Positions 10,801 through 57,384 of a stretch of 64,000 nt of DNA are shown one piece after another. Under the pieces are notes generated by a model that saw only the letters and a program-made list of their open reading frames with translations, was not told the origin of the DNA and did no database searches. Numbering within the stretch: the first letter of the stretch is position 1; each line of letters begins with the position of its first letter. Position numbers and translations under genes: made by a program. Origin of the DNA: Escherichia phage dhaeg; sequence record MN850609.1. One strand, given 5' to 3'.

Positions 10801-11328
10801 ATGAAATTTTTAACCCCCATTTATCTAACCTTAATGCACGCCTTCGCTGAACGCGCCATTGAACGTTTAGACTCAGACCAATATACCTGGTATGAACCTA
10901 CTTCAAGAATGCAAGAGTTTGGTACTCTTCGACTTGACGGTGGGCGTCAAACAGGTAAAACAAGTGCCATTGCCCAGTTCGCAGCTGATTGGGTTTCCAA
11001 GGGTAATGATGTGATTGTTATGTCAAGTTCTTCGCACCGGTCACGCGAAATTTGTAATGTAATAAAAAGGGTTTCTAAGGCCCAACCACACCTTCAAGTA
11101 GAAGGTCCTGGGTTTGTTGTATATGATACCGTACGTTCATTTTTAGACGAAGATAACTTCCATAAGTATCGTGGTCTATCAGTTACTCGATTATTGATTA
11201 TTATCGAAGAGCCAATGCGCCTTCCAGCGATGGATAAGTTCTATGAAGCTTACCAGGTAATGATGAATAAATTTATGTGCCAGGGTTCTAAACCTCTGCC
11301 GCTGTTCTTTGTGATAGGAATGCAATGA
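10801..11328 (+). CDS. Hypothetical protein with Walker A-like motif
   Basis: GGRQTGKTS P-loop-like motif; ORF. Confidence 0.55.
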   Translation: MKFLTPIYLTLMHAFAERAIERLDSDQYTWYEPTSRMQEFGTLRLDGGRQTGKTSAIAQFAADWVSKGNDVIVMSSSSHRSREICNVIKRVSKAQPHLQVEGPGFVVYDTVRSFLDEDNFHKYRGLSVTRLLIIIEEPMRLPAMDKFYEAYQVMMNKFMCQGSKPLPLFFVIGMQ

Positions 11329-11621
11329 TGACTGATGAAGAGCTTTTTGAGTTCTGTTATTTCTCACGTAAGGTTCGAAGAGAGGACCTTACTACAAATT
11401 TCGAATATGCTTATTTCTATCCATTAGAATATGTATTCATGTCAGGGCCCTTTAAGGGCTCTCGTTTTAGATGTCATGCCCCAAGCATCCGATTAATGAA
11501 ACAGGTTCCTTACTTCACTCTCGAGTTCATCTCTGGGCCGTGTAAGGGTATTATTACTCGCAGTCTCTTGACGTATGACCAAGAGATTCATATGATTTCT
11601 GACTGGAAAAAATATGTCTAA
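11325..11621 (+). CDS. Hypothetical protein
   Basis: ATGATG overlap with upstream stop. Confidence 0.55.
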   Translation: MMTDEELFEFCYFSRKVRREDLTTNFEYAYFYPLEYVFMSGPFKGSRFRCHAPSIRLMKQVPYFTLEFISGPCKGIITRSLLTYDQEIHMISDWKKYV

Positions 11622-11832
11622 ATTGACAATTGAAGGCTCTGATGAAGCTCTGAAGAGATTTGTTGAATGGTTTAATGGGCCGGGTGAACAAGACTTTCTG
11701 GAAGTCTGGGACGGCGGCCAATGGAATGGTAAAGAAATTGTTTACCCAACTACTTATATCTCCGTGCAAGGTTGGACTGAAGGCCTTCGTTTGGTGGAAT
11801 ATGATATCGCAACTGGCGAGGAAGTGAAATGA
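11614..11832 (+). CDS. Hypothetical small protein
   Basis: ORF, overlapping start. Confidence 0.55.
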   Translation: MSKLTIEGSDEALKRFVEWFNGPGEQDFLEVWDGGQWNGKEIVYPTTYISVQGWTEGLRLVEYDIATGEEVK

Positions 11833-12107
11833 TTGAAGACATCAAAGGTTACAAGCCACATACCGACGATAAAATAGGTAAAGTGAATGCCATTAAAGAT
11901 GCTGAAGTTCGATTGGGCTTAATCTTTAAAGCATTAGAAGAAGAATATGTTGAAGCCTTTACATGCTCCGGTGTTGATAAAATGAGTGATGAAGAATTCG
12001 ACCTTACTCATGAACGCCTCGCCCAGATTCGTACGGCAATCGAACGCTTGAAAGAAGCATCCATGTGGGCCTGTCGTTCCGTTTTCCAACCGGAAGAGAA
12101 ATACTAA
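11829..12107 (+). CDS. Hypothetical small protein
   Basis: SD GAGGAAGTGAAATG. Confidence 0.55.
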   Translation: MIEDIKGYKPHTDDKIGKVNAIKDAEVRLGLIFKALEEEYVEAFTCSGVDKMSDEEFDLTHERLAQIRTAIERLKEASMWACRSVFQPEEKY

Positions 12108-12316
12108 TGAAAATCGAAAGTTTGCAAGAATTCCAACGTATCATCAGTGAAGCCTGTACTGGCTACCACAAATACTTGCTTGACGACCAAATGGCTTGTA
12201 TTGAAGAAGGTGAATTGCAGTACGCAGCCCAGCGCCTTGAACAGGTGAAAGAGTTTTATCCGGTGCTGGTAGAAATTTGTTCTGCTGTCGGAAAACTTAC
12301 CCCATTCCAAGAATAA
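12107..12316 (+). CDS. Hypothetical small protein
   Basis: TAATGA overlap start; SD GGAAGAGAAA. Confidence 0.5.
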   Translation: MKIESLQEFQRIISEACTGYHKYLLDDQMACIEEGELQYAAQRLEQVKEFYPVLVEICSAVGKLTPFQE

Positions 12317-12320
12317 AGCA

Positions 12321-12361
12321 GTTTACATCTCCTGTAGACGTGGTACTATAGACCTATCAAC
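12321..12361 (+). promoter_or_regulatory. Early promoter cassette with stem-loop (ATCTCCTGTAG / CTACAGGAGAT perfect 11-bp arms)
   Basis: GTTTAC 12321-12326, TACTAT 12344-12349, conserved AGACCTATCAAC. Confidence 0.6.
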
Positions 12362-12377
12362 TACAGGAGATTACAAA

Positions 12378-12836
12378 ATGTCAGAAATTAATTCAGAAGT
12401 ATTCATCCGCCGCAACAAATTACGTCGTCAGTTCGAAACCGAATTTCGTGAACTTAACGCGTCCATCAAAAAAGCCGCCATTAAGAGCGGTGTCCCAGCT
12501 TTCTTTATTAAGTACTCTAATCACTTGTTGGACCGTGCTATCCAACGTGAAATTGACGAAAAATATGTTTTCTCTTTGTTCAAGAAGCTCCATAATCATG
12601 TTAAAGAAATCCATGAATTTTTAATCCAGGAGCCTCTTCCTGACATAGAATCTGAAATTGTCCCAGGTAAAGTGTATCGTCCACTGCGTCTCGAGATTAC
12701 CGATAAAACCTTATGGTTGGGTATGACCGTAGATCGTAAACATCCTGATAAAGGATATTCATTAAAATGTCGTATGGCATTTGTTAATTCTAAACGTTTA
12801 GAAGGTAAAACCAGCACGAAAGTAATCTATCTTTAA
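12378..12836 (+). CDS. Hypothetical protein (152 aa)
   Basis: SD CTACAGGAGATTACAAAATG. Confidence 0.65.
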   Translation: MSEINSEVFIRRNKLRRQFETEFRELNASIKKAAIKSGVPAFFIKYSNHLLDRAIQREIDEKYVFSLFKKLHNHVKEIHEFLIQEPLPDIESEIVPGKVYRPLRLEITDKTLWLGMTVDRKHPDKGYSLKCRMAFVNSKRLEGKTSTKVIYL

Positions 12837-12848
12837 TAATGAGGTCTC

Positions 12849-13388
12849 ATGAAAAAAGTATTAGCCACTTTACTATTGACAGTTAGTATGTCTGCCTATA
12901 GCGTAGAGCCTACTTTCAGTAATGAACAACTCGATAATTTACATTATGCGTATGCTTTCGGTGAACAATACCAAAAGTCGGGAAAGTTCAAAGAAAACCC
13001 TAATCAAAAAGGATTAGGATATATAATGGCCGGATTATTATGGCAGGAATCATCTGCTGGAATTAATCAAGGTTTAAATAAAGATAAGCACCATGCTTAT
13101 GGCATGTTCCAAAATTACTTGCCTACGTTAAGAAGTCGTGTTCAACAGGTAGGTTGGAAGATGTCAGACAAAGAAATAATTCGCATGGTCCAAAAACGAC
13201 AGAACAGTGCCTCTTGGGCCTACATTGAGCTGTCTTATTGGATTGATGTTCACAAAGGTGACCTGAGAAAAGCGATTGCTTCTTATAATGCGGGCTGGAA
13301 TGTCAAAGCAGGCAGTAAATATGCTTCCGAAGTTCTAGAAAAGGCCAATTACCTAAAATCTAAAAAGATGTTTGAGGCGGTATATTAA
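12849..13388 (+). CDS. Secreted lytic transglycosylase (SLT-domain)-like protein
   Basis: Signal peptide MKKVLATLLLTVSMSAYS; motif WQESS...GMFQ resembles SLT catalytic E-S...G(L/M)(M/F)Q. Confidence 0.5.
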   Translation: MKKVLATLLLTVSMSAYSVEPTFSNEQLDNLHYAYAFGEQYQKSGKFKENPNQKGLGYIMAGLLWQESSAGINQGLNKDKHHAYGMFQNYLPTLRSRVQQVGWKMSDKEIIRMVQKRQNSASWAYIELSYWIDVHKGDLRKAIASYNAGWNVKAGSKYASEVLEKANYLKSKKMFEAVY

Positions 13389-13745
13389 ATGATTAAACAG
13401 ATGACTATAGCGCTTATGTTGATTGCTCCGGGAGTATTAGCATCACAGGTTGATGATACAAATAATTCAATTGTCGAGTATGCCACCCGTACAGCAAAAG
13501 ATTATTGTCATCCGAGTAATACTGAATGTGTTATTGAATTCAGTTCAAAAATAACAGCTGCTTTTAAAGATGGACAGAACGACGTCGAGCATCGCCGAAT
13601 GAAAGAGAAAACTCTTTCTAAAAGATACGAGCAACGTCTAAACGTTACTGAATGTGTTCCGTCTGATAAAAAGTACAAAGAAATGTGCGCGTCTATGGTA
13701 GACAGACTCGTTGACTCTTACAACCGAGGGCTAAACTCTAAATGA
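13389..13745 (+). CDS. Secreted Cys-containing hypothetical protein
   Basis: Signal peptide MIKQMTIALMLIAPGVLAS. Confidence 0.6.
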   Translation: MIKQMTIALMLIAPGVLASQVDDTNNSIVEYATRTAKDYCHPSNTECVIEFSSKITAAFKDGQNDVEHRRMKEKTLSKRYEQRLNVTECVPSDKKYKEMCASMVDRLVDSYNRGLNSK

Positions 13746-14221
13746 TTATTGATTATATTAAGGGCGATATCGTCGCCCTGTTTCTTCAAGGTAATATTAT
13801 TGCACACGGGTGCAACTGTTTTCATACTATGGGTTCAGGTGTGGCTGGTCAATTAGCAAAGGCCTATCCTAAAATATTAGAAATTGATAAGACCACTACT
13901 GAATATGGTTCTCGTGATAAATTGGGTGATATGTCTATTGTTTTTAAACATAAGCCTAATGGATTTGCAATGTGCTATAATTTATACACCCAATACGAAC
14001 CAGGCCCTAATCTTGATTACGGTGCTTTAGTAAACTGTATGATAGAATTAAATCTACAAGCAAATGACCTTTTGTTTAAACCAAGAATTTATATTCCTCG
14101 CATTGGTTGTGGTATTGCTGGTGGTGATTGGGACAAGGTTTCTAAATTAATCGACATGTTTACTCCTGATATTGATTTAATAGTGGTGGATTATGAAAGC
14201 ACATTACCCACATCCGTTTGA
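13742..14221 (+). CDS. Macro-domain protein (ADP-ribose binding/hydrolase-like)
   Basis: GDIV...IIAHGCNCFHTMGSGVAGQL and IGCGIAGGDWDKV resemble macro-domain motifs (NAAN...GGGVAGAI ; IGxGxxGG). Confidence 0.6.
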   Translation: MIIDYIKGDIVALFLQGNIIAHGCNCFHTMGSGVAGQLAKAYPKILEIDKTTTEYGSRDKLGDMSIVFKHKPNGFAMCYNLYTQYEPGPNLDYGALVNCMIELNLQANDLLFKPRIYIPRIGCGIAGGDWDKVSKLIDMFTPDIDLIVVDYESTLPTSV

Positions 14222-14405
14222 CCCTAAAAATAAAGCTGAAATTATTCGGCGCTGGACTGAAACTCGAGTAACCAAATGCCCTATAAAAAGTCAGCATAAC
14301 ACCGATAAATGGTATATTGGTGAATATGTTGAATATACTTTTATAGATAAAAATAAACGTAAACAGCATGTAGAAGAATATTGCTTAAAGGTACAATGGT
14401 TATGA
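14193..14405 (+). CDS. Hypothetical small protein
   Basis: ORF overlapping previous gene end by 29 nt. Confidence 0.4.
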   Translation: MKAHYPHPFDPKNKAEIIRRWTETRVTKCPIKSQHNTDKWYIGEYVEYTFIDKNKRKQHVEEYCLKVQWL

Positions 14406-14608
14406 GCCAAGCCCGAATTCTTAAAACAGCCAAATGTGAAAAATGCGAATGGCCGGTAATCGCAGCTTTATGCAACGATGAAATGAATTGCGAATATGAT
14501 TACTGGTGGTACTGTTCTAATAAAGGATGTTCTAATCATAAAGGTGAAGGTTTTCATTCTGGTTATTGCGAACATCCTAAATTTGTGCGATATGGTGAAC
14601 CTAAATGA
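14396..14608 (+). CDS. Small Cys-rich (zinc-binding?) protein
   Basis: CEKCEW...C...C...C pattern; track start 14381 is TTG, ATG at 14396. Confidence 0.5.
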   Translation: MVMSQARILKTAKCEKCEWPVIAALCNDEMNCEYDYWWYCSNKGCSNHKGEGFHSGYCEHPKFVRYGEPK

Positions 14609-14790
14609 GTTTGAGTAAAGAACAGAAAGACAAATTGTTTGAGCTTATCCATGAGCTTTTGGATGAACATGCCGAAGCAAACGCTTTTTACGATGAATAT
14701 GGCCCGATAGATGCCGACCATCAGGAAGAATTTGCTAATCGATTTGATGAGAAAGAAAACGAATTAATTGCTTATGTGAATAGTCTTTAA
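14605..14790 (+). CDS. Small acidic protein
   Basis: ATGA overlap start; Asp/Glu-rich. Confidence 0.5.
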   Translation: MSLSKEQKDKLFELIHELLDEHAEANAFYDEYGPIDADHQEEFANRFDEKENELIAYVNSL

Positions 14791-14799
14791 GAAGGTAAT

Positions 14800-15372
14800 A
14801 TGGCTCAACTTTATTTTCACTATGCGGCAATGAACTCAGGTAAGACAGCTTCATTGCTAACGGCGGCTCATAACTACAAAGAACGTGGTATGGGCGTGCT
14901 CCTTTTAAAGCCTGCGATAGACAATAGAGAATCAAGCCATACCATTTCGTCTCGTATAGGGATTAGTCAAGAGGCTAATGCAGTGACTCCGGATATGGAC
15001 CTATACGAGTTCTATCGTTGGGCTGAATCTCAAAAAGATATCCACTGTGTGTTTGTGGATGAAGCACAGTTCTTAGAACCTGCACAGATAAAACAACTGG
15101 CAAAGATAGTAGACAATTATAATGTTCCAGTTATGTGTTATGGACTAAGAACTGATTTTCAGGGTAAACTGTTTCCTGGTTCTGCCGAATTACTCGCTAC
15201 GGCAGATAAACTCGTTGAGTACAAAGGTGTGTGCCATTGTGGCCGTAAAGCTACTATGACTGCTAGGGTCCAAGATGGTATCGCAATTAAGGACGGAGCC
15301 CAAGTTTCTATAGGTGGCAACGATTCTTACGTGTCATTGTGCAGGAAGCACTGGATAGAAATAACGAGTTGA
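14800..15372 (+). CDS. tk: Thymidine kinase
   Basis: MAQLYFHYAAMNSGKTASLL P-loop, C-terminal zinc ribbon CHCG...C; matches T4 Tk. Confidence 0.9.
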   Translation: MAQLYFHYAAMNSGKTASLLTAAHNYKERGMGVLLLKPAIDNRESSHTISSRIGISQEANAVTPDMDLYEFYRWAESQKDIHCVFVDEAQFLEPAQIKQLAKIVDNYNVPVMCYGLRTDFQGKLFPGSAELLATADKLVEYKGVCHCGRKATMTARVQDGIAIKDGAQVSIGGNDSYVSLCRKHWIEITS

Positions 15373-15379
15373 GGGTACT

Positions 15380-15658
15380 ATGGACCTAAATTCAAAGATT
15401 TTAATTCTAGCGTTCGCTGTGGCCATCTCTTATATTGTTCTTTCGCCCATCATGGATGATGTGGCTTACAAAAGAGAGATAGAAGTTGTAGCAGCGACGT
15501 ATAATGCTAATAATAAAGAATGTCCTAATAAAAATGGAATGGATTTAATTAAAGCGCATTATATGCTTTCCATTACCTCGCCTATACAGAGGAATTGGGT
15601 TGAATATAATTTTAACGACGTGTTCTATTCTTATTGTCGTAAGCTTAAAAAGCTATAA
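15380..15658 (+). CDS. Hypothetical membrane protein
   Basis: N-terminal TM helix; SD GAGGGTACTATG. Confidence 0.55.
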   Translation: MDLNSKILILAFAVAISYIVLSPIMDDVAYKREIEVVAATYNANNKECPNKNGMDLIKAHYMLSITSPIQRNWVEYNFNDVFYSYCRKLKKL

Positions 15659-15661
15659 ATA
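15654..15661 (+). promoter_or_regulatory. Possible late promoter TATAAATA
   Basis: Exact octamer about 90 nt upstream of 15752. Confidence 0.3.
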
Positions 15662-15751
15662 GTAATACTAACCGTAGAGCTTTAGCTTTTGGTAATCGCT
15701 ATCGGTTAAGGCCGAAAGGCAAATTCGTATAAAATAACAAAGGACTTTTGT

Positions 15752-16045
15752 ATGGGTATTTTCCGTACAGTGGCTTGTATCCTTATGATTGGATGTTTAA
15801 GCCCGACATCTTCACTAGCAAACAAATCCGACCCTAAATTGATGGATGCCTTTGCTAGTAGTGCGATGCCAGTTTATGCGCAAATGAGTAAACCTAGTGT
15901 AAAGGCTTCCGAAGACTACTGGGCTTATGTAACTGCTTCTTGGAAAATTTCAAATTGCAATACAATAGAGTCTTGCTCGATTGAAGGTCGGGCTATCGGA
16001 GAACGATACGCTAAACTAATGAAGGTAGATGATGAAATTCAATGA
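15752..16045 (+). CDS. Putative lipoprotein/secreted protein
   Basis: Signal peptide with Cys (LMIGC). Confidence 0.6.
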   Translation: MGIFRTVACILMIGCLSPTSSLANKSDPKLMDAFASSAMPVYAQMSKPSVKASEDYWAYVTASWKISNCNTIESCSIEGRAIGERYAKLMKVDDEIQ

Positions 16046-16415
16046 TTTCGTACTTAGTCGAGGGACTGAAGTAGATTCTTATATTGGCTGGCTGTTGGTT
16101 TCTTTAGCCTATTTTAAGTCAGCCCATTTGGAAACCAAAAGCTATGCAAGACACAAAGCATATGACTTCTATTATACAGAAGTTCAAGGACCACTAGACC
16201 AGTTCAGTGAACAGTATTTAGGATTTAGTGGCAAAGAATATAAAGCATCACTACCGTCTGCTTCAGAACTGCCTAAAGACCCCATAGATTTTCTTGATGA
16301 ACTTATTAAAGCGTCTGATAAAATCTACAAAAATCTTCCTAAGGCCATCCAATCGACTTTGGACGACATCACTGGTGTCTTTTACCAGACTAAGTATTTG
16401 TTAACGTTAGAATAA
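16029..16415 (+). CDS. Hypothetical protein
   Basis: ORF, SD GAAGG. Confidence 0.6.
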   Translation: MMKFNDFVLSRGTEVDSYIGWLLVSLAYFKSAHLETKSYARHKAYDFYYTEVQGPLDQFSEQYLGFSGKEYKASLPSASELPKDPIDFLDELIKASDKIYKNLPKAIQSTLDDITGVFYQTKYLLTLE

Positions 16416-16420
16416 TCAAA

Positions 16421-16446
16421 GGTCTCACTTCGGTGGGACCTTTTTT
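16421..16446 (+). terminator. Rho-independent terminator
   Basis: GGTCTCAC-TTCG-GTGGGACC followed by TTTTTT. Confidence 0.6.
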
Positions 16447-16455
16447 CGTTTTAGT

Positions 16456-16496
16456 GTTTACATCCTCTAGGAACGTGATACTATAGACCTATCAAC
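16456..16496 (+). promoter_or_regulatory. Early promoter cassette (GTTTAC-N17-TGaTACTATAGACCTATCAAC)
   Basis: GTTTAC 16456-16461, TACTAT 16479-16484. Confidence 0.6.
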
Positions 16497-16512
16497 TAAT
16501 GAGGAGAATAAA

Positions 16513-42433: not shown

Positions 42434-42493
42434 GCAATAGAAATTTATTAAAAATAGTGTATAATGTATCTACATTCACTTGAGGAACAGATA

Positions 42494-44167
42494 ATGAAAA
42501 AGGTTGTTATTTTAGGCGCAGGTCTTGGCTCACGGTTGTATCCAATTACTAACGAAATCCCGAAGGTATTGGTTAACTACAAACAACATACTGTATTAAA
42601 ACATTTGTATGATTTGTATAGTAACCAATCAGATGAAATTATTCTGGTTATCCACAGCAAATTTAACGACCTCGTTAAAGGCTATATTAAATCCATTAAC
42701 ATGATTACTGGCGATAAGCCTAAATTCACTATTCGTAACGTTGATGTTGCTAATGGTTCGGCCCATGCTATCGATTGCATTGCCGAAGATATCATTGGCC
42801 ATAATGTCTTGTTTAACTGGTGTGACATCATTCCTATCGGTCATAAAGTTGAATGGGGTAACGACTACTGTTATACCTATGGAACCGACTGTCGTTTTAC
42901 ATTCGAAGAACCATATTTACGTGAAATTGGTACTGGTGGTGGCGTAGTTGGTTTGTATCAGGTGGCTAACTGGACAGGTTTCGACCGTTCTAATTATGGT
43001 GAAGACCTTGCTGATAACCTGGATTCAATGGTCTATTTGACCGAACGTAAACTAGACTTTGTAGTTGATGTCGGTGACAAATTGAAACTGGCTAAGGCCC
43101 ATGAAGAATCTGAAATCAATCGTGAATTTAATAAATTAGAATTCACTGAGAATCTGGCCATTAAAGTACCAACTAACGAATTAGGTAAAGAAATTCAATC
43201 TAAAGAAATCAATTGGTATAATTCTATTGATTCTGAATTTGTTCCTAGTATTGTGGACTTTTCTCCAGGCGAATTCATTAAAATGGAACGTATCTTTGGT
43301 CGTACCATGGCAGATGCCTACCGCTTTATGTCCAAAGAAACTAAAGTCCTCATGGTTTATAAGGTCATTAGTGCATTACGTTCATTTGGTGGAACTATCG
43401 ATAATCCGTCCGATGAACAATGGTATTCTGATGTTAAGAAAGAAGTATTGGACAAGGTCCTTATTCGTAATGCTTCTATTGCTGGATTGATTGAAGGCTT
43501 TGCTCCACAAGGCATTACCCACGTTAACGATTTCAAAGTAGGCGACCCTGAAAAACTTCTCCGCCATGCACTAGAAATTCTGTCTGAACATAAAGAACCA
43601 TACCAACTTATTCATGGCGACCCGCACTACAGTAATATTATGCTGTCGGACGAAGGTGATATTAAAATCATCGACCCACGCGGTTATTTCGGTAATAGTT
43701 CTAAAGGCCCTGCGATTTATGATGAAGCTAAGGTGCTTTATTCTATCGATGGCTATGATAAATTTAACTCAGACCCTCTATGGGGTGGATTAACTCGTAA
43801 CGGAACTCGTGTATTCGTTGATATCGAAAAGGTTATGCCTTTAGACGATATCCCTATGTGCACATTTAAGCACAAGCTCTGGATTGCCGTTATTTGGATG
43901 GCTCTGGCAGGTTACTTTAAGAATAACCCTCTGAAAGCTCTGGGTGCTTATTATAATGGTTTGTATCAACTGAGTGTGCTGCTGAAGCGGCATCCTCGTA
44001 AGCGTAAGCTTATTACGGGTGAATTTGTCGATGAAGTTCGTGACCCTATTACGGCTCAAATTATTACTCGTTGTCCTGATAAGTGGGTTTTGCTTGACCA
44101 GGAAACTGGTGTAAAATATAAACCTACAGGTTCTACTGAACTCCACAAACAATGGAAGAAAATTTAA
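42494..44167 (+). CDS. Bifunctional sugar-1-phosphate nucleotidyltransferase / APH-fold (anomeric sugar or choline-type) kinase
   Basis: N-term MKKVVILGAGLGSRLYPITNEIPKVL (GxGxR..PxT..PK NTase signature); C-term HGDPHYSNIM ... IIDPRGYFG kinase catalytic/ Mg loops; ATG after SD GAGGAA. Confidence 0.65.
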   Translation: MKKVVILGAGLGSRLYPITNEIPKVLVNYKQHTVLKHLYDLYSNQSDEIILVIHSKFNDLVKGYIKSINMITGDKPKFTIRNVDVANGSAHAIDCIAEDIIGHNVLFNWCDIIPIGHKVEWGNDYCYTYGTDCRFTFEEPYLREIGTGGGVVGLYQVANWTGFDRSNYGEDLADNLDSMVYLTERKLDFVVDVGDKLKLAKAHEESEINREFNKLEFTENLAIKVPTNELGKEIQSKEINWYNSIDSEFVPSIVDFSPGEFIKMERIFGRTMADAYRFMSKETKVLMVYKVISALRSFGGTIDNPSDEQWYSDVKKEVLDKVLIRNASIAGLIEGFAPQGITHVNDFKVGDPEKLLRHALEILSEHKEPYQLIHGDPHYSNIMLSDEGDIKIIDPRGYFGNSSKGPAIYDEAKVLYSIDGYDKFNSDPLWGGLTRNGTRVFVDIEKVMPLDDIPMCTFKHKLWIAVIWMALAGYFKNNPLKALGAYYNGLYQLSVLLKRHPRKRKLITGEFVDEVRDPITAQIITRCPDKWVLLDQETGVKYKPTGSTELHKQWKKI

Positions 44168-44550
44168 TGTCGCATCGAGTAGAAAATAAGCCACATTTAT
44201 GTTTTGATATCGATAACACAATCACGATTTGGAACCATGACCGTGATTATGAGAACTTTAAACCGGACACCGAAATGGTGTCCATGATTAATAAGCTTTA
44301 TGATGAAGGGTACGAGATTACATTGTTCACTGCCCGTGGCATGACTTCATGTGGCCCAGGTCGAATCTTGGTTGAAGTAGTTCCTGCATTGGTTAAGAAT
44401 CTTGAAAAAATTGGATTGAAATATCACAATTTGCTTACACACAAGCCGAGTTATACTTTTATCATCGATGACCGAGCAATCCGTCCTGACCACTTTAAAG
44501 AATTGGTTCGTGAAGGAACTCTTGATAGTTATAAGGCCTATCATCCATGA
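44167..44550 (+). CDS. HAD-superfamily phosphatase-like protein
   Basis: Motif I CFDIDNTIT (DxDxT); 127 aa. Confidence 0.55.
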   Translation: MSHRVENKPHLCFDIDNTITIWNHDRDYENFKPDTEMVSMINKLYDEGYEITLFTARGMTSCGPGRILVEVVPALVKNLEKIGLKYHNLLTHKPSYTFIIDDRAIRPDHFKELVREGTLDSYKAYHP

Positions 44551-45083
44551 ATCCAAAAATCATTGTTATAGACGGCCCGGATAATTCCGGGAAGTCCACT
44601 TTAATTAAAAATCTGTTATCCAATAAGAAATACCGCCTTATTGATTTTCCTAAAAAGATTAATGGCAAGTGTATTTCATTAGGAACTGATAACGATAAGG
44701 CTTTAGTTGAAACTCTGTATAAGTTTTTAGACCCTAATTTCGTTTATATCCTTGACCGTGGTTATCCAAGTAATATTGTTTACTCAGGATTCCTTCGTGG
44801 TGAAATGGACCCTTATGTAGAACTGGAAGATTGGAAAGGGTTTAAATCTGAATTTAACGTTATCGAGGTTATTTTAACTCGCAACCCATTAGACGAAGAC
44901 TTCGAAGATGACCTTATTAAATTAACCAAAGATGAGTTCAACCTAACTATCCAGCAATACGAAACATGTTTTGAAAACGTGTTTAAAATCTTAAATCATG
45001 ACGGTCATAATAATTTGCTTAATGTTGATATGGTAGAATTAAAACGTCTGAACGAATATATTGAAAATAAGGTGAATAAATGA
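44547..45083 (+). CDS. P-loop nucleotide kinase (thymidylate/dNMP kinase-like)
   Basis: IVIDGPDNSGKSTL Walker A and LDRGYPS; 178 aa. Confidence 0.55.
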   Translation: MNPKIIVIDGPDNSGKSTLIKNLLSNKKYRLIDFPKKINGKCISLGTDNDKALVETLYKFLDPNFVYILDRGYPSNIVYSGFLRGEMDPYVELEDWKGFKSEFNVIEVILTRNPLDEDFEDDLIKLTKDEFNLTIQQYETCFENVFKILNHDGHNNLLNVDMVELKRLNEYIENKVNK

Positions 45084-45778
45084 AACACATTACCGCTGTT
45101 AGTTTTGAAAACGCATTTAAACAAATGAACGAAGAAATCCTGGAAGCTCCACAGTTTGCAGTTGATTCTCGTATCGGACGCTGTTATGAAATTGGTTCTG
45201 CTTCAGTAGAAGTACTGGATGCCAGCACCTATAAATTCACCGACCCACGTATCAATCGTATCAGTTATGAATATGCCGAATCCTTTTGGAAATTTATGAT
45301 TTCTGGTGGTACTGACGCTGCCGAAGCATTTAAGGAATACCCTAATGTTGCTAAGTTCATTGATAAGCCGAAAAGTGACGTATTGCCTGCAAACTTCAAC
45401 ACTTTCTATGGACCTCGAATTGTGGCCCAGCTCCCAGCCCTACTTAAAGAGCTTAAAGAAAAGGCTAACTCGCGAAGAGTTGTGTTCCAGATTCTCCAAG
45501 AACAAGACCAAGCCCTCCTTGATTCTGACGAATCCTTAGAATACCCGTGCACCGATTCAGTAACGTATTATATTCGTGATGGTCGTTTGTATGCACATAC
45601 CCATATGCGTTCACAAAACTGCGCTGTTGTTATGCAGCTGGATTTCTATCTGCAGGGTAAACTGATGGCATTTATTGCCGAACAGTGTGGTGTCGGTTTA
45701 GGTACGTATTCCCACACCATGGTAAGTGCACACGTGTTTGAACGTGATTTTGACTACGTCCGAGGTTTCCTGAAATGA
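45080..45778 (+). CDS. Thymidylate-synthase-family pyrimidine hydroxymethylase (diverged gp42-like)
   Basis: YPCTDSVTYYIRDGRLYAHTHMRSQN vs T4 gp42 FMCTNTVQYLIRDKKINAVVNMRSND (catalytic Cys context), position of gene 42. Confidence 0.6.
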   Translation: MKHITAVSFENAFKQMNEEILEAPQFAVDSRIGRCYEIGSASVEVLDASTYKFTDPRINRISYEYAESFWKFMISGGTDAAEAFKEYPNVAKFIDKPKSDVLPANFNTFYGPRIVAQLPALLKELKEKANSRRVVFQILQEQDQALLDSDESLEYPCTDSVTYYIRDGRLYAHTHMRSQNCAVVMQLDFYLQGKLMAFIAEQCGVGLGTYSHTMVSAHVFERDFDYVRGFLK

Positions 45779-46668
45779 GTTTGTTTATCGTTCCTATTTT
45801 CAGTATGCGTAGTTACGAAACAGGTGAATATGCCGTCCTTAAGGACGGTAATTTTCAACTCCATTTAAATCGTGCTCGTCCAGGTGATTATCTGGCTTAT
45901 CCTAGAAATTCGAGCGATATCAAAGAATGCATTGAATTATTCCCAGAACTGAATTTCGTACCACTTTGGTATAAAGAAAATGCTTATGAAACCCGTAAAC
46001 ATTTCTGGTCCGAAAATGAGTTTGTAGTCGATTCACTAATCGAATACTATGATTGCTCAGGACTGGTAACCGATATCACCGGTTATGATGGTGCTCATAC
46101 TGTACAATTCAACTTTAATATCACAATGGACCCTGAAGTTCCTCGTTATTATATCGACGAGTTCATTGATATTGATGTGGCTTCAGTTGAACGTTCACTT
46201 TATACTACAGTCCTGAATCAATGCCAGAAAGACGTCCTGGTGTCACGAGGTGCATCCTCTGATAAGATTTTTGTAGACCAAAAGGTAATTAATCCTGCAG
46301 TAATTGAGCGTTACTCTGATGGTCTAGCGCCTATTAAAATTGATGGTATTTTCCATCCATTCCGTATTTCGGATAAGTGCTATCAATTCGAAAGAGTTGT
46401 AGACCAAGCTGCCGCTGAAGGTGCTCGTCTTTATATCACCGACCCGAATGATTCATTTAAGCGTGAAGACTATCGTCCTGATGTAGAGATTGTTAAATTC
46501 AAACCGAGTAAGGTTGAATATTATCAGATTCTGAAATCAAGACCACATATCATTTATCATGAGAACCCAGGTTTAGTATTCCATCCTGGTCTGGCTGAAT
46601 TCATTTATTTCGGTGCCCATATTCATTCTGAGTACGAAATGCCACGTTATGAGGACGTAGTATGCTAG
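45775..46668 (+). CDS. Unknown 297-aa protein in the beta-gt slot; candidate DNA sugar transferase
   Basis: Position only (between hydroxymethylase and uvsX where T4 has beta-gt); no similarity to T4 beta-gt seen. Confidence 0.35.
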   Translation: MSLFIVPIFSMRSYETGEYAVLKDGNFQLHLNRARPGDYLAYPRNSSDIKECIELFPELNFVPLWYKENAYETRKHFWSENEFVVDSLIEYYDCSGLVTDITGYDGAHTVQFNFNITMDPEVPRYYIDEFIDIDVASVERSLYTTVLNQCQKDVLVSRGASSDKIFVDQKVINPAVIERYSDGLAPIKIDGIFHPFRISDKCYQFERVVDQAAAEGARLYITDPNDSFKREDYRPDVEIVKFKPSKVEYYQILKSRPHIIYHENPGLVFHPGLAEFIYFGAHIHSEYEMPRYEDVVC

Positions 46669-46793
46669 GTCCTCTATTGCTTTTTATAGGTTTGTTATTA
46701 TTCTCTTTCGGAGCCCTTCTAGTATTATGCTGGCTCGAGAAACGAGAAGTTCGGAAGATAGTCGATAAGGCTATCAACCGAGGAATTAAGTAA
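46662..46793 (+). CDS. Possible small membrane peptide (43 aa)
   Basis: ATG overlapping upstream stop; hydrophobic. Confidence 0.3.
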   Translation: MLGPLLLFIGLLLFSFGALLVLCWLEKREVRKIVDKAINRGIK

Positions 46794-46818
46794 TGCTATA
46801 GCTGTGAAGTGATATAAT
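46794..46818 (+). promoter_or_regulatory. Candidate middle promoter upstream of uvsX (TGCTA box + TGaTATAAT)
   Basis: ATGCTAT 46793-46799, TATAAT 46813-46818. Confidence 0.3.
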
Positions 46819-46871
46819 TACCCTATCTTAAAAACGTGAGAAAAATATAATGGTGCCTATGGAAAAATATA

Positions 46872-48044
46872 ATGTCCGATTTAAAATCCCGTTTGATTAA
46901 AGCTTCTACTTCTAAAATGACTGCCGATCTGACCAAATCTAAATTGTTTAATGGTCGTGACGAAGTTCCTACTCGTATTCCTATGCTTAATATTGCATTG
47001 GGTGGTGCGTTGAATGCAGGCTTACAATCAGGTTTGACAATCTTTGCTGCACCGTCTAAACACTTTAAAACGTTGTTTGGATTAACTATGGTTGCGGCAT
47101 ATATGAAGAAATATCCAGACGCAATTTGCTTGTTCTATGACTCTGAGTTCGGTGCTTCAGAATCTTATTTCCGTTCAATGGGTGTTGACCTGGAACGTGT
47201 GGTTCATACGCCAATCCAGTCAGTCGAACAACTGAAGGTTGACATGACCAACCAATTAGAAGAAATTACTCGTGGCGAAAAGGTTATTATCTTTATCGAC
47301 TCCATCGGTAATACTGCTTCTAAGAAAGAAACCGAAGATGCTTTGAACGAGAAAGTTGTAGGTGATATGACTCGTGCTAAGTCTCTGAAATCTCTGTTCC
47401 GTATCGTAACACCTTATTTGACTATCAAGGATATTCCTTGCGTAGCAATTAACCATACGGCTATGGAAATTGGTGGAATGTATCCTAAAGAGATTATGGG
47501 TGGTGGTACTGGTATTCTGTACTCTGCTTCTACCGTATTCTTTATCTCTAAACGTCAGGTTAAAGATGGTACCGAGCTCACTGGTTATGACTTCACCCTT
47601 AAGGCCGAAAAATCTCGTACTGTTAAAGAGAAATCAACGTTCCCAATTACTGTGAACTTTGAAGGTGGTATCGACCCGTTTAGTGGTCTGCTCGAAATGG
47701 CTACTGATATTGGCTTTGTCGTGAAACCTAAAGCTGGTTGGTATAATCGTGCATTCCTTGACGAAACTACAGGTGAAATGGTTCAAGAAGAAAAATCATG
47801 GCGTGCTAAAGCTACCGATTGTGTCGAGTTCTGGGGACCGCTGTTTAAACATGCCCCGTTCCGTGAAGCAATCGAGAATAAGTATAAGCTTGGTGCAATT
47901 AATTCTATTAAAGAAGTCGATGATGCCGTGAACGACCTTATTAACTCTCGTGTCTCTAAGAACGTTGCAGTTAAATTGAGTGGTGACGCTCAAAGTGCTG
48001 CTGATATCGAAAACGATTTAGAAGAGATGGATTTAGATGACTGA
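46872..48044 (+). CDS. uvsX: Recombinase UvsX (RecA-like)
   Basis: Colinear with T4 UvsX as recalled (MSDLKSRLIKASTSK...IPMLNIALGG..., Walker A GPSKHFKT). Confidence 0.9.
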   Translation: MSDLKSRLIKASTSKMTADLTKSKLFNGRDEVPTRIPMLNIALGGALNAGLQSGLTIFAAPSKHFKTLFGLTMVAAYMKKYPDAICLFYDSEFGASESYFRSMGVDLERVVHTPIQSVEQLKVDMTNQLEEITRGEKVIIFIDSIGNTASKKETEDALNEKVVGDMTRAKSLKSLFRIVTPYLTIKDIPCVAINHTAMEIGGMYPKEIMGGGTGILYSASTVFFISKRQVKDGTELTGYDFTLKAEKSRTVKEKSTFPITVNFEGGIDPFSGLLEMATDIGFVVKPKAGWYNRAFLDETTGEMVQEEKSWRAKATDCVEFWGPLFKHAPFREAIENKYKLGAINSIKEVDDAVNDLINSRVSKNVAVKLSGDAQSAADIENDLEEMDLDD

Positions 48045-56145: not shown

Positions 56146-56715
56146 ATGAACATCGAACAAAAATGTCTTTATCAAGACCGAATCAATTCTAAATTTTCAA
56201 AATCTGAACAAGCGTTGTTAGAGAAATGTCTGGATGCCAAAAAAGACCCTAACTTCCATTATGACCTAGACAAACTAGTTCGTAAGCATGTTACTTCGGT
56301 CGTTCCGGTAGAGCTTTATCGTGGGATTACTCCAAGAGAACTTGAGCAACTTGAAGTTCTTTCTGTCGGATGCCAGTGGTCTCCCGGCCGTGTTACTTCT
56401 TTTAGTACACAATACTCTCAGGCTCGTCAGTTCGCAGGGGCGTGGGAATATGGAACTAAAACCATCTTAAGTCTCAGGAATGCACCGTTCATTTTCGACT
56501 ACTACAATCATGCTATCGACCTTGTTCTTGCAGGGAATGTGGACGAACTTGAAATAGATGAAACCCGGATAGACCTCTATGATATGGTCGAAACTGAATG
56601 TGAGTTCATGGTCTCTAGTCTATCACGGTTCGAGATTGTGGAAATCGAAACTATCAAAAGAGACCCATACGAAATCGAGTACAAAATAATTCATTTAAAA
56701 ATGTTAGATTTTTAG
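56146..56715 (+). CDS. ADP-ribosyltransferase (ModA/ModB-like)
   Basis: R-S-E type motifs: LYRGI, SFSTQ, E-x-E (ECEF); paralog of next gene. Confidence 0.65.
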   Translation: MNIEQKCLYQDRINSKFSKSEQALLEKCLDAKKDPNFHYDLDKLVRKHVTSVVPVELYRGITPRELEQLEVLSVGCQWSPGRVTSFSTQYSQARQFAGAWEYGTKTILSLRNAPFIFDYYNHAIDLVLAGNVDELEIDETRIDLYDMVETECEFMVSSLSRFEIVEIETIKRDPYEIEYKIIHLKMLDF

Positions 56716-56769: not shown

Positions 56770-57384
56770 ATGTTATATCCAAATCATAAATTATCAGAGT
56801 TCTATGACAATGTTAAATGTGATGATTTCCGTGAAAACATTCAGGGTGAAATAGACGGGCAGTACTCTGATTTAGAACAGAGTGTCCTCTGGCAGTGCAT
56901 GGAAAATAAACCTGATTCTATCCAAGAAACTTTGAACAAAATCATTCGTAAGAATCTAACTTCTGTAGTGCCTGACAAACTGTACCGTGGAATTTCTAAG
57001 AAAACTTTGAAATACCTCGAATCGGTAGGATGTGTTGGTGCCACAATTGAATTTGACAGAGTAATGAGCTTCTCTAAAGATTTTAAGGTGGCCCGTAACT
57101 TTGCTTCATATAATTTTTACGGAACCAAAAATATTTTCTGTATTAATGATGCACCTTTTGCATTTGATTACCAGGAAGCAATCTTTAAAATGATTTGTGG
57201 CGCTCCTCCCGAAGAGTTCAACGGGCCATATCCAGAAATAACTCGTACTTCAAACTTGCAATTAGTAAACGATGAAGATGAGATGATGTTCCCTGCGGGA
57301 ACTACGCTACGCGTAGACTCTATTGAGAGAGTTTGTGGATGGCAAGATTATACATTATGGAATCTTTCCGTTCTTTCTTACTGA
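56770..57384 (+). CDS. ADP-ribosyltransferase (ModA/ModB-like)
   Basis: LYRGIS, MSFSKD, acidic catalytic region; paralog of previous gene. Confidence 0.65.
   Translation: MLYPNHKLSEFYDNVKCDDFRENIQGEIDGQYSDLEQSVLWQCMENKPDSIQETLNKIIRKNLTSVVPDKLYRGISKKTLKYLESVGCVGATIEFDRVMSFSKDFKVARNFASYNFYGTKNIFCINDAPFAFDYQEAIFKMICGAPPEEFNGPYPEITRTSNLQLVNDEDEMMFPAGTTLRVDSIERVCGWQDYTLWNLSVLSY

Follow-up and report, generated by a model that had tools for sequence, protein, structure and literature searches.

A function was assigned to the T4 gene tk.4 by HIDEN-SEQ, in a November 2025 preprint (bioRxiv 10.1101/2025.11.20.689424) in which a T4 transposon library on DarTG2-expressing E. coli gave tk.4 as the sole significant hit. 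T4 became sensitive to DarTG2 when tk.4 was cleanly knocked out, and the gene now has the name adfM, for anti-DarT factor macrodomain (10.1101/2025.11.20.689424). This result filled a gap, because T4 without both adfA and the NADAR gene adfN had stayed resistant to DarTG2 (PMC11825919). The HIDEN-SEQ evidence is genetic, and enzymatic removal of ADP-ribose from DNA was inferred there as what 'seems likely' (10.1101/2025.11.20.689424). We found no Tk.4 biochemistry in the later literature beyond this preprint. The PhiKZ protein gp104, which was independently also named AdfM, strips DarT2-made ADP-ribose from a TNTC oligonucleotide in vitro (Cell Rep 2026, PMC13309987). T4 AdfN (gp30.3) follows the same strategy: carried by the phage, this 'orphan antitoxin-like' glycohydrolase removes DarT marks from DNA (PMC11825919). 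However, AdfN has an unrelated NADAR fold, is specific for the guanine-ADP-ribose made by DarT1 and has no action against DarTG2.

The bacterial macrodomain SCO6735 from Streptomyces coelicolor efficiently hydrolyses DarT-made thymidine-ADP-ribose on single-stranded DNA, is highly processive and also acts on glutamate-linked protein ADP-ribose (PMC9411070). Its Gln85 is structurally equivalent to K84 of TARG1 and K80 of DarG, and the substitutions Q85A, Q85E and N27S all abolish activity (PMC9411070). In the catalysis proposed for SCO6735, a water is held by the Val25 backbone and Gln85 positions the distal ribose; a mobile loop bearing Lys89 and Lys94 has been tied to DNA activity and processivity, with Lys89 mattering for activity on DNA (PMC9411070). 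Thymine-N3 and Glu/Asp ester linkages are the substrates of the structural class formed by TARG1, DarG and SCO6735 (PMC9411070).

We analysed a window of 64,000 nucleotides from Escherichia phage dhaeg (MN850609.1), in which an open reading frame on the plus strand (13742-14221) runs from ATG to TGA and encodes a single-domain protein of 159 amino acids. Over the 2.5 kb around this gene, identity is 97% with Escherichia phage JS98 and 92-98% with other Dhakavirus genomes, and we assign dhaeg to Dhakavirus as a JS98-like relative of T4. The gene order regB-vs.1-vs-tk.4-tk.3-...-tk-rI is common to dhaeg, JS98, T2 and T4. The dhaeg protein aligns with T4 Tk.4 (NP_049723) over all 155 residues without gaps, at 57% identity (E=5e-69). 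By these comparisons of sequence and gene order, 13742-14221 is classed as the Dhakavirus syntenic orthologue of T4 tk.4. The two proteins share their position between vs and tk.3, their size, their single-domain architecture and the residues Asn25 and Gln84; they differ at 43% of residues, in the second loop (GAGIGKGNW in T4, GCGIAGGDW in dhaeg) and in a 4-aa C-terminal extension of the dhaeg protein. The gene is not new: it is an already annotated, widely conserved member of the T4 family whose function was assigned in 2025. In JS98, the orthologue is annotated as 'tk.4; phosphatase; contains A1pp phosphatase motif'. The closest match to the dhaeg protein is from Esco_phi_B-01 (99.4%).

Other parts of the window have different affinities. 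Relative to the Dhakaviruses in the database, dhaeg is a mosaic (12849-15372 compared with 42500-47500 and 56770-57384): phage dhabil matches it at 100% identity in ModA and at 99.9% in the 42.5-47.5 kb block, but for the vs.1-tk region the dhabil alignment is broken into two pieces that cover just 92% of the query, and JS98 (97%) is the best match over the full length. Five co-directional open reading frames at 42464-46668 (+) are orthologous to JS98 orf38-42 and RB69 orf047c-052c, with annotations that include 'thymidylate kinase', 'phosphoheptose isomerase', 'capsule biosynthesis protein' and 'deoxycytidylate 5-hydroxymethyltransferase'. The RB69 counterpart is the cluster linked to arabinosyl-hydroxymethylcytosine DNA modification, and dhaeg DNA may accordingly be modified differently from that of T4. 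The part of the genome that corresponds to the T4 gene 30.3 locus falls outside the window.

The start of tk.4 is closely joined to the gene before it. At 13726-13745 (+), a Shine-Dalgarno-like GAGGG (13726-13730) lies 11 nt 5' of the tk.4 ATG, which overlaps the vs stop codon as ATGA (13742-13745), and the same GAGG...ATGA layout is found in T4, T2 and JS98. The overlap suggests that translation is coupled within the regB-vs.1-vs-tk.4-tk.3-tk string. At its other end, tk.4 overlaps the start of tk.3 out of frame (14193-14221, +), by 29 nt in dhaeg compared with only 4 nt in T4; the last three residues of the protein (157-159) are predicted to be disordered (pLDDT < 50 in the AlphaFold2 model). 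The downstream gene, tk.3 (14193-14405, +), encodes 70 amino acids with a full-length match to DUF7202 (2.5e-37) and to PHROG 2008, a family of unknown function. Directly upstream, vs (13389-13745, +; PHROG 1256) encodes the valyl-tRNA synthetase modifier. In T4, vs was the most strongly depleted gene in minimal medium (HIDEN-SEQ preprint, 10.1101/2025.11.20.689424), so that vs and tk.4 are two conditionally essential genes that are direct neighbours. Before vs, vs.1 (12849-13388, +) encodes 179 amino acids with a signal-peptide-like N terminus and has a sub-threshold match to an SLT lytic transglycosylase domain (15.7 bits, cut-off 21.3), which hints at a periplasmic muramidase-like protein.

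We did not find a promoter signal in this region: a scan of 11000-16500 gave 15 promoter-like sites where 18.2 were expected, and so did not outperform shuffled sequence. Two terminator-like matches inside the tk.4 coding sequence, at 13761-13779 and 13800-13815, were rejected as not credible. The first is a GC-rich inverted repeat of 8 pairs, AGGGCGAT-ATC-GTCGCCCT on the plus strand, that begins 20 nt into tk.4. T4, T2 and JS98 share its stem without change, and the sole substitution falls in the loop; the hairpin is absent from the Karamvirus, Klebsiella, Erwinia, Acinetobacter and Aeromonas T4-likes that we compared. Because it is lost in these more distant T4-likes, the hairpin probably just reflects conservation of the KGDIVAL codons. 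Downstream of the gene string that runs from regB to rI, the first convincing terminator is a strong intrinsic-terminator-like hairpin at 16418-16443 (+), with 11 pairs followed by a T-run, directly 3' of an rI.-1-like open reading frame (16029-16415).

Five kinds of comparison place the dhaeg protein in the macrodomain family. Pfam Macro (PF01661) matched at 33.7 bits (gathering cut-off 22, E=4e-8) over profile positions 2-117 of 118, that is, 116 positions, and PHROG 335 matched at 7e-71. Among solved macrodomains, phmmer recovered BT1257, Poa1p, SCO6735, Mycobacterium tuberculosis (Mtb) DarG and TARG1. AlphaFold2, run with 60 homologues, gave a model (mean pLDDT 94.2, pTM 0.88) with the three-layer alpha/beta/alpha macro fold, and the top Foldseek matches of this model were TARG1, BT1257, Poa1p and DarG. 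Human TARG1 (OARD1) was the first of these (E=1e-9, TM 0.72-0.81), and both of its loops, together with the beta-strand that ends at Thr83, align residue for residue with Tk.4. On the basis of the Pfam, PHROG, phmmer, AlphaFold2 and Foldseek results, we assign dhaeg Tk.4 to the macrodomains of the ALC1/TARG1-like class, with the fold itself being a prediction. The initial annotation had called this a macro-domain protein and had named structure prediction as a check. The Pfam match above the cut-off, the confident model and the macrodomain hits bear out that description, and the prediction returned a macro fold (pLDDT 94.2) with TARG1 as its best match. The motifs that it quoted (KGDIV, HGCNCFHTMGSGVAGQL and IGCGIAGGDW) are present, but the spacing that it gave needs correction: the protein has N25-x4-MGSGV, which corresponds to the canonical N-x6-[G/S]-G-V.

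The binding site is conserved in outline. The N-terminal GD motif and both glycine-rich diphosphate loops (G31-A35 and P119-G128) are retained, which is consistent with putative ADP-ribose binding. The first loop (G31-S32-G33-V34-A35, codons 13832-13846, +) is predicted to bind the ADP-ribose diphosphate and aligns with 'MGAGIA' of TARG1, and G33 and A35 are invariant among homologues. The second, predicted phosphate-binding loop (P119-R-I-G-C-G-I-A-G-G-D-W130, codons 14096-14131, +) aligns with 'PRIGCGLDRLQW' of TARG1, and P119, G122, G124 and W130 are invariant among homologues.

By contrast, the catalytic residues are not those of TARG1. Residue 84 of dhaeg Tk.4, at the position of the catalytic lysine in TARG1 (K84), DarG (K80) and PhiKZ AdfM (K78), is a glutamine (codon CAA, 13991-13993, +) that corresponds to the essential Gln85 of SCO6735, and in the profile alignment A126 occupies the place of the TARG1 catalytic Asp125, so that the TARG1 dyad K84/D125 is replaced by Q84/A126. 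Gln84 was found in all 120 homologues retrieved and was also invariant in the alignment of 60 homologues. In the profile-to-PDB alignment, 'NlYtQ' (N80-L-Y-T83-Q84) falls on 'NMIGQ' of SCO6735 and BT1257 (from Bacteroides) and on 'YLITK' (K84) of TARG1. The second conserved residue, Asn25 (AAC, 13814-13816), lies within H22-G23-C24-N25-C26 (codons 13805-13819, +), where 'aHGcNC' sits on 'AHVCND' and 'THICND' of 5e3b and 2fg1. Asn25 is equivalent to SCO6735 Asn27 and DarG Asn22, and G23 is equivalent to SCO6735 Val25. H22, G23, N25 and C26 are invariant in the 60 homologues; across the larger set, 118 of 120 have N25 and the other two have gaps at this position. Thus, the feature that marks the SCO6735/BT1257 group, a glutamine in place of the lysine together with a conserved asparagine, is present as Q84 and N25. 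Tk.4 has been called DarG-like in the literature, yet dhaeg Tk.4 and all of its family depart from DarG at the catalytic centre. That the lysine of DarG, TARG1 and PhiKZ AdfM is missing, with Gln84 and Asn25 present as in SCO6735, is a point that the papers we consulted do not state.

The missing lysine and aspartate could be taken to mean that Tk.4 is a non-catalytic ADP-ribose reader, a sponge or a direct inhibitor of DarT2, which would do no more than bind ADP-ribosylated DNA or the toxin. We consider this extremely improbable, as SCO6735, which is also of the glutamine type, is a highly processive hydrolase in which Gln85 is essential (PMC9411070), the strict conservation of Asn25 and Gln84 is what would be expected of an active site, and Tk.4 has no DarT-binding domain, aligning to positions 2-144 of 329 of the DarG model alone. 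Instead, the active site is likely to be of the SCO6735 type, not of the lysine-dependent DarG/TARG1 type. By profile E-value, too, the Tk.4 family matches BT1257 (3e-20) and SCO6735 (2e-16) better than it matches DarG (1.6e-11 and 2e-9).

Tk.4 nevertheless differs from its bacterial relatives. The loop after Gln84 is short (YEPGPN) and has no lysine; the corresponding mobile loop of SCO6735 and BT1257 is 5-6 residues longer, and Tk.4 has no equivalents of SCO6735 Lys89 and Lys94. SCO6735 and BT1257 are standalone chromosomal proteins induced by DNA damage, whereas dhaeg Tk.4 is viral. We also tried and rejected an identification of Tk.4 as DarG, the DarTG2 antitoxin (PDB 5M3I, 5M31 and 7OMU). 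NCBIfam NF048014 scored 28.3 bits against an equivalog cut-off of 250, and the alignment was confined to the macro half of each model, at positions 2-144 of 329 for PADLOC and 1-142 of 338 for NCBIfam. DarG has a catalytic lysine (Lys80 in Taq DarG) where Tk.4 has Gln84, and the gene for Tk.4 encodes no C-terminal DarT-binding domain and has vs and tk.3, not darT, as its neighbours. On sequence grounds, we therefore file the dhaeg protein in the Tk.4/AdfM orthologous group, as neither a DarG nor a full match to the SCO6735 subgroup. PhiKZ gp104 is likewise a single phage macrodomain that counters DarTG2, but it belongs to the DarG-type subfamily, with N23 and K78 (PMC13309987), and matches Mtb DarG at 9e-25. 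It is alignable with dhaeg Tk.4 over only 33 residues (E=8e-4), and it is imported into the phage nucleus. The name 'AdfM' is thus shared by two phage macrodomains of different subtypes, T4 Tk.4 (Gln-type) and PhiKZ gp104 (DarG-type, K78), which could mislead annotation pipelines.

Which ADP-ribose does Tk.4 remove? The initial annotation had favoured the marks set by the phage itself. Alt, ModA and ModB are arginine-specific enzymes that make arginine-linked ADP-ribose, and we know of no ALC1/TARG1-class macrodomain that cleaves arginine-ADP-ribose. The window does contain the two ADP-ribosyltransferase genes that had been noted, a modB-like gene at 56146-56715 and a modA-like gene at 56770-57384 (PHROG 832 at 7e-38 and 2e-41, in agreement with the JS98 annotation). 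Tk.4 might then remove the ADP-ribose or RNA-linked ADP-ribose that Alt, ModA and ModB set on host RNA polymerase, S1, EF-Tu and other targets, and so time or limit these marks; the presence of both genes in the same genome (56146-57384), the general role of macrodomains as ADP-ribose erasers and some activity of SCO6735 on protein ADP-ribose (PMC9411070) all fit such a role. However, the linkages on which the class acts, thymine-N3 and Glu/Asp esters, are not the arginine linkage of the Mod enzymes, and 42 kb separate tk.4 from the Mod genes, which belong to an unrelated gene block. The distributions do not agree either. Tk.4 homologues, each in single copy, were found in 2,773 phage records (about 2,770 of 50,697), including 184 from Pseudomonas, 136 from Vibrio, 93 from Acinetobacter and 86 from Aeromonas phages in addition to Bacillus and Cellulophaga phages, whereas Mod homologues were found in 1,075 phage records, essentially all of them enterobacterial T4-likes. 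Tk.4 is therefore about 2.6 times as frequent, and at least about 1,700 of its carriers have no detectable Mod homologue. A chromosomal homologue from Pelagimonas is standalone, as are SCO6735 and BT1257, with no ADP-ribosyltransferase or DarT gene in its surroundings, which likewise argues against a tie to the Mod enzymes; a second bacterial homologue that we examined sits in a phage-like contig. Finally, the sole phenotype that we found for T4 tk.4 is DarTG2-dependent (10.1101/2025.11.20.689424). With distribution, linkage chemistry and the T4 phenotype all against it, the proposal that the phage erases its own ModA/ModB marks found no support, and we regard it as very improbable.

The alternative offered by the initial annotation, counter-defence against DarT-type DNA ADP-ribosylation, fared better: it is supported by orthology to T4 tk.4, the single Tn-seq hit whose knockout sensitised T4 to DarTG2. 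The same phenotype would be left unexplained if Tk.4 were a small-molecule phosphatase or esterase that, like Poa1p or YmdB, dephosphorylates ADP-ribose-1''-phosphate or deacetylates O-acetyl-ADP-ribose in nucleotide housekeeping. Yeast Poa1p is a close structural neighbour, and Tk.4 H22 and T29 align with Poa1p H23 and S30 in the phmmer alignment. The label 'A1pp phosphatase', however, is what the Macro family of Pfam was formerly called and reflects no assay, the YmdB-type NCBIfam equivalog scored 14 bits against a cut-off of 291, and ADP-ribose-1''-phosphate would seem to have no obvious source in infected E. coli. Such a housekeeping function is quite improbable.

A wider defensive role is unlikely, if somewhat easier to entertain. 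Here, DarT2 would merely be the first toxin tested against a broad-spectrum eraser that also reverses the marks of several other ADP-ribosylating toxins, whether other DarT-like enzymes or those that modify RNA or phosphate ends or protein Glu/Asp residues. The very wide spread of Tk.4 homologues over unrelated phage groups is consistent with this breadth, as are the several linkages cut by TARG1, the activity of SCO6735 on both DNA-thymidine and protein marks (PMC9411070) and the proposal that standalone bacterial homologues are protective enzymes. Nonetheless, CmdTAC, an mRNA ADP-ribosyltransferase system, strongly blocks wild-type T4 despite its tk.4 gene, and T4 needs a separate NADAR protein, AdfN, against the guanine-ADP-ribose made by DarT1 (PMC11825919). 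SCO6735 itself is inactive on 2'-OH RNA ADP-ribosylation; on 5'-phosphate ADP-ribose it is inactive in the results of the paper, yet it is described as active on RNA phosphate ends in the discussion.

We therefore favour, as the probable explanation, that dhaeg Tk.4 is an adfM orthologue and an SCO6735-type eraser of DarT2-made thymine-ADP-ribose that lets the phage escape DarTG2. Tk.4 would be made from the co-directional regB-vs.1-vs-tk.4-tk.3-tk gene string and would bind the ADP-ribose that the host toxin DarT2 places on thymine, at TNTC motifs, in single-stranded phage DNA. It would then hydrolyse the N-glycosidic bond between ribose and thymine to release free ADP-ribose, restoring the template for replication and transcription so that the phage escapes the abortive defence by DarTG2. 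Because Tk.4 has no counterpart of the C-terminal DarT-binding domain of DarG, it would act on the modification and not on the toxin. In the active site, Asn25 may lock Gln84 in place, Gln84 may position the distal ribose and a water held by the backbone may start catalysis. We infer thymidine-ADP-ribose hydrolysis by dhaeg Tk.4 itself, as well as these catalytic details, by analogy with T4 Tk.4 and SCO6735. Several observations weigh on the other side of this explanation. The DarTG2 phenotype is that of T4, from one genetic preprint, and the 57% identity between the two proteins leaves room for a different specificity. The long mobile loop with its lysines, to which activity on DNA has been ascribed in SCO6735, is missing from the Tk.4 family, and a protein substrate is possible, given that SCO6735 acts also on Glu-linked protein ADP-ribose (PMC9411070).

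The different catalytic residues of the Tk.4-type and PhiKZ-type AdfM proteins suggest independent recruitment. One possible explanation, for and against which we judge the case to be evenly balanced, is that two macrodomain subtypes that differ in mechanism have each been recruited by phages to counter the same toxin. One would be the lysine-dependent, DarG-derived type of PhiKZ gp104; the other, the Tk.4 type, would be no orphaned DarG but a short-loop offshoot of the standalone Gln-type genome-protector enzymes represented by BT1257 and SCO6735, with water- or substrate-assisted catalysis. If this is true, the substrate range of the Tk.4 type may differ from that of DarG and may, for example, be dual, covering DNA-thymidine and protein-Glu/Asp marks as in SCO6735. 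The two proteins called 'AdfM' should not be treated as one family.

With tk.4, dhaeg is one more carrier of a very widespread phage counter-defence. What this analysis adds is mechanistic: the Tk.4 clade is without the lysine of DarG and TARG1 and has an SCO6735-type Asn/Gln pair, which leads to the defined mutants N25A, Q84A and Q84K. The distribution of tk.4 also helps to predict which therapeutic and model T4-like phages escape DarTG2.
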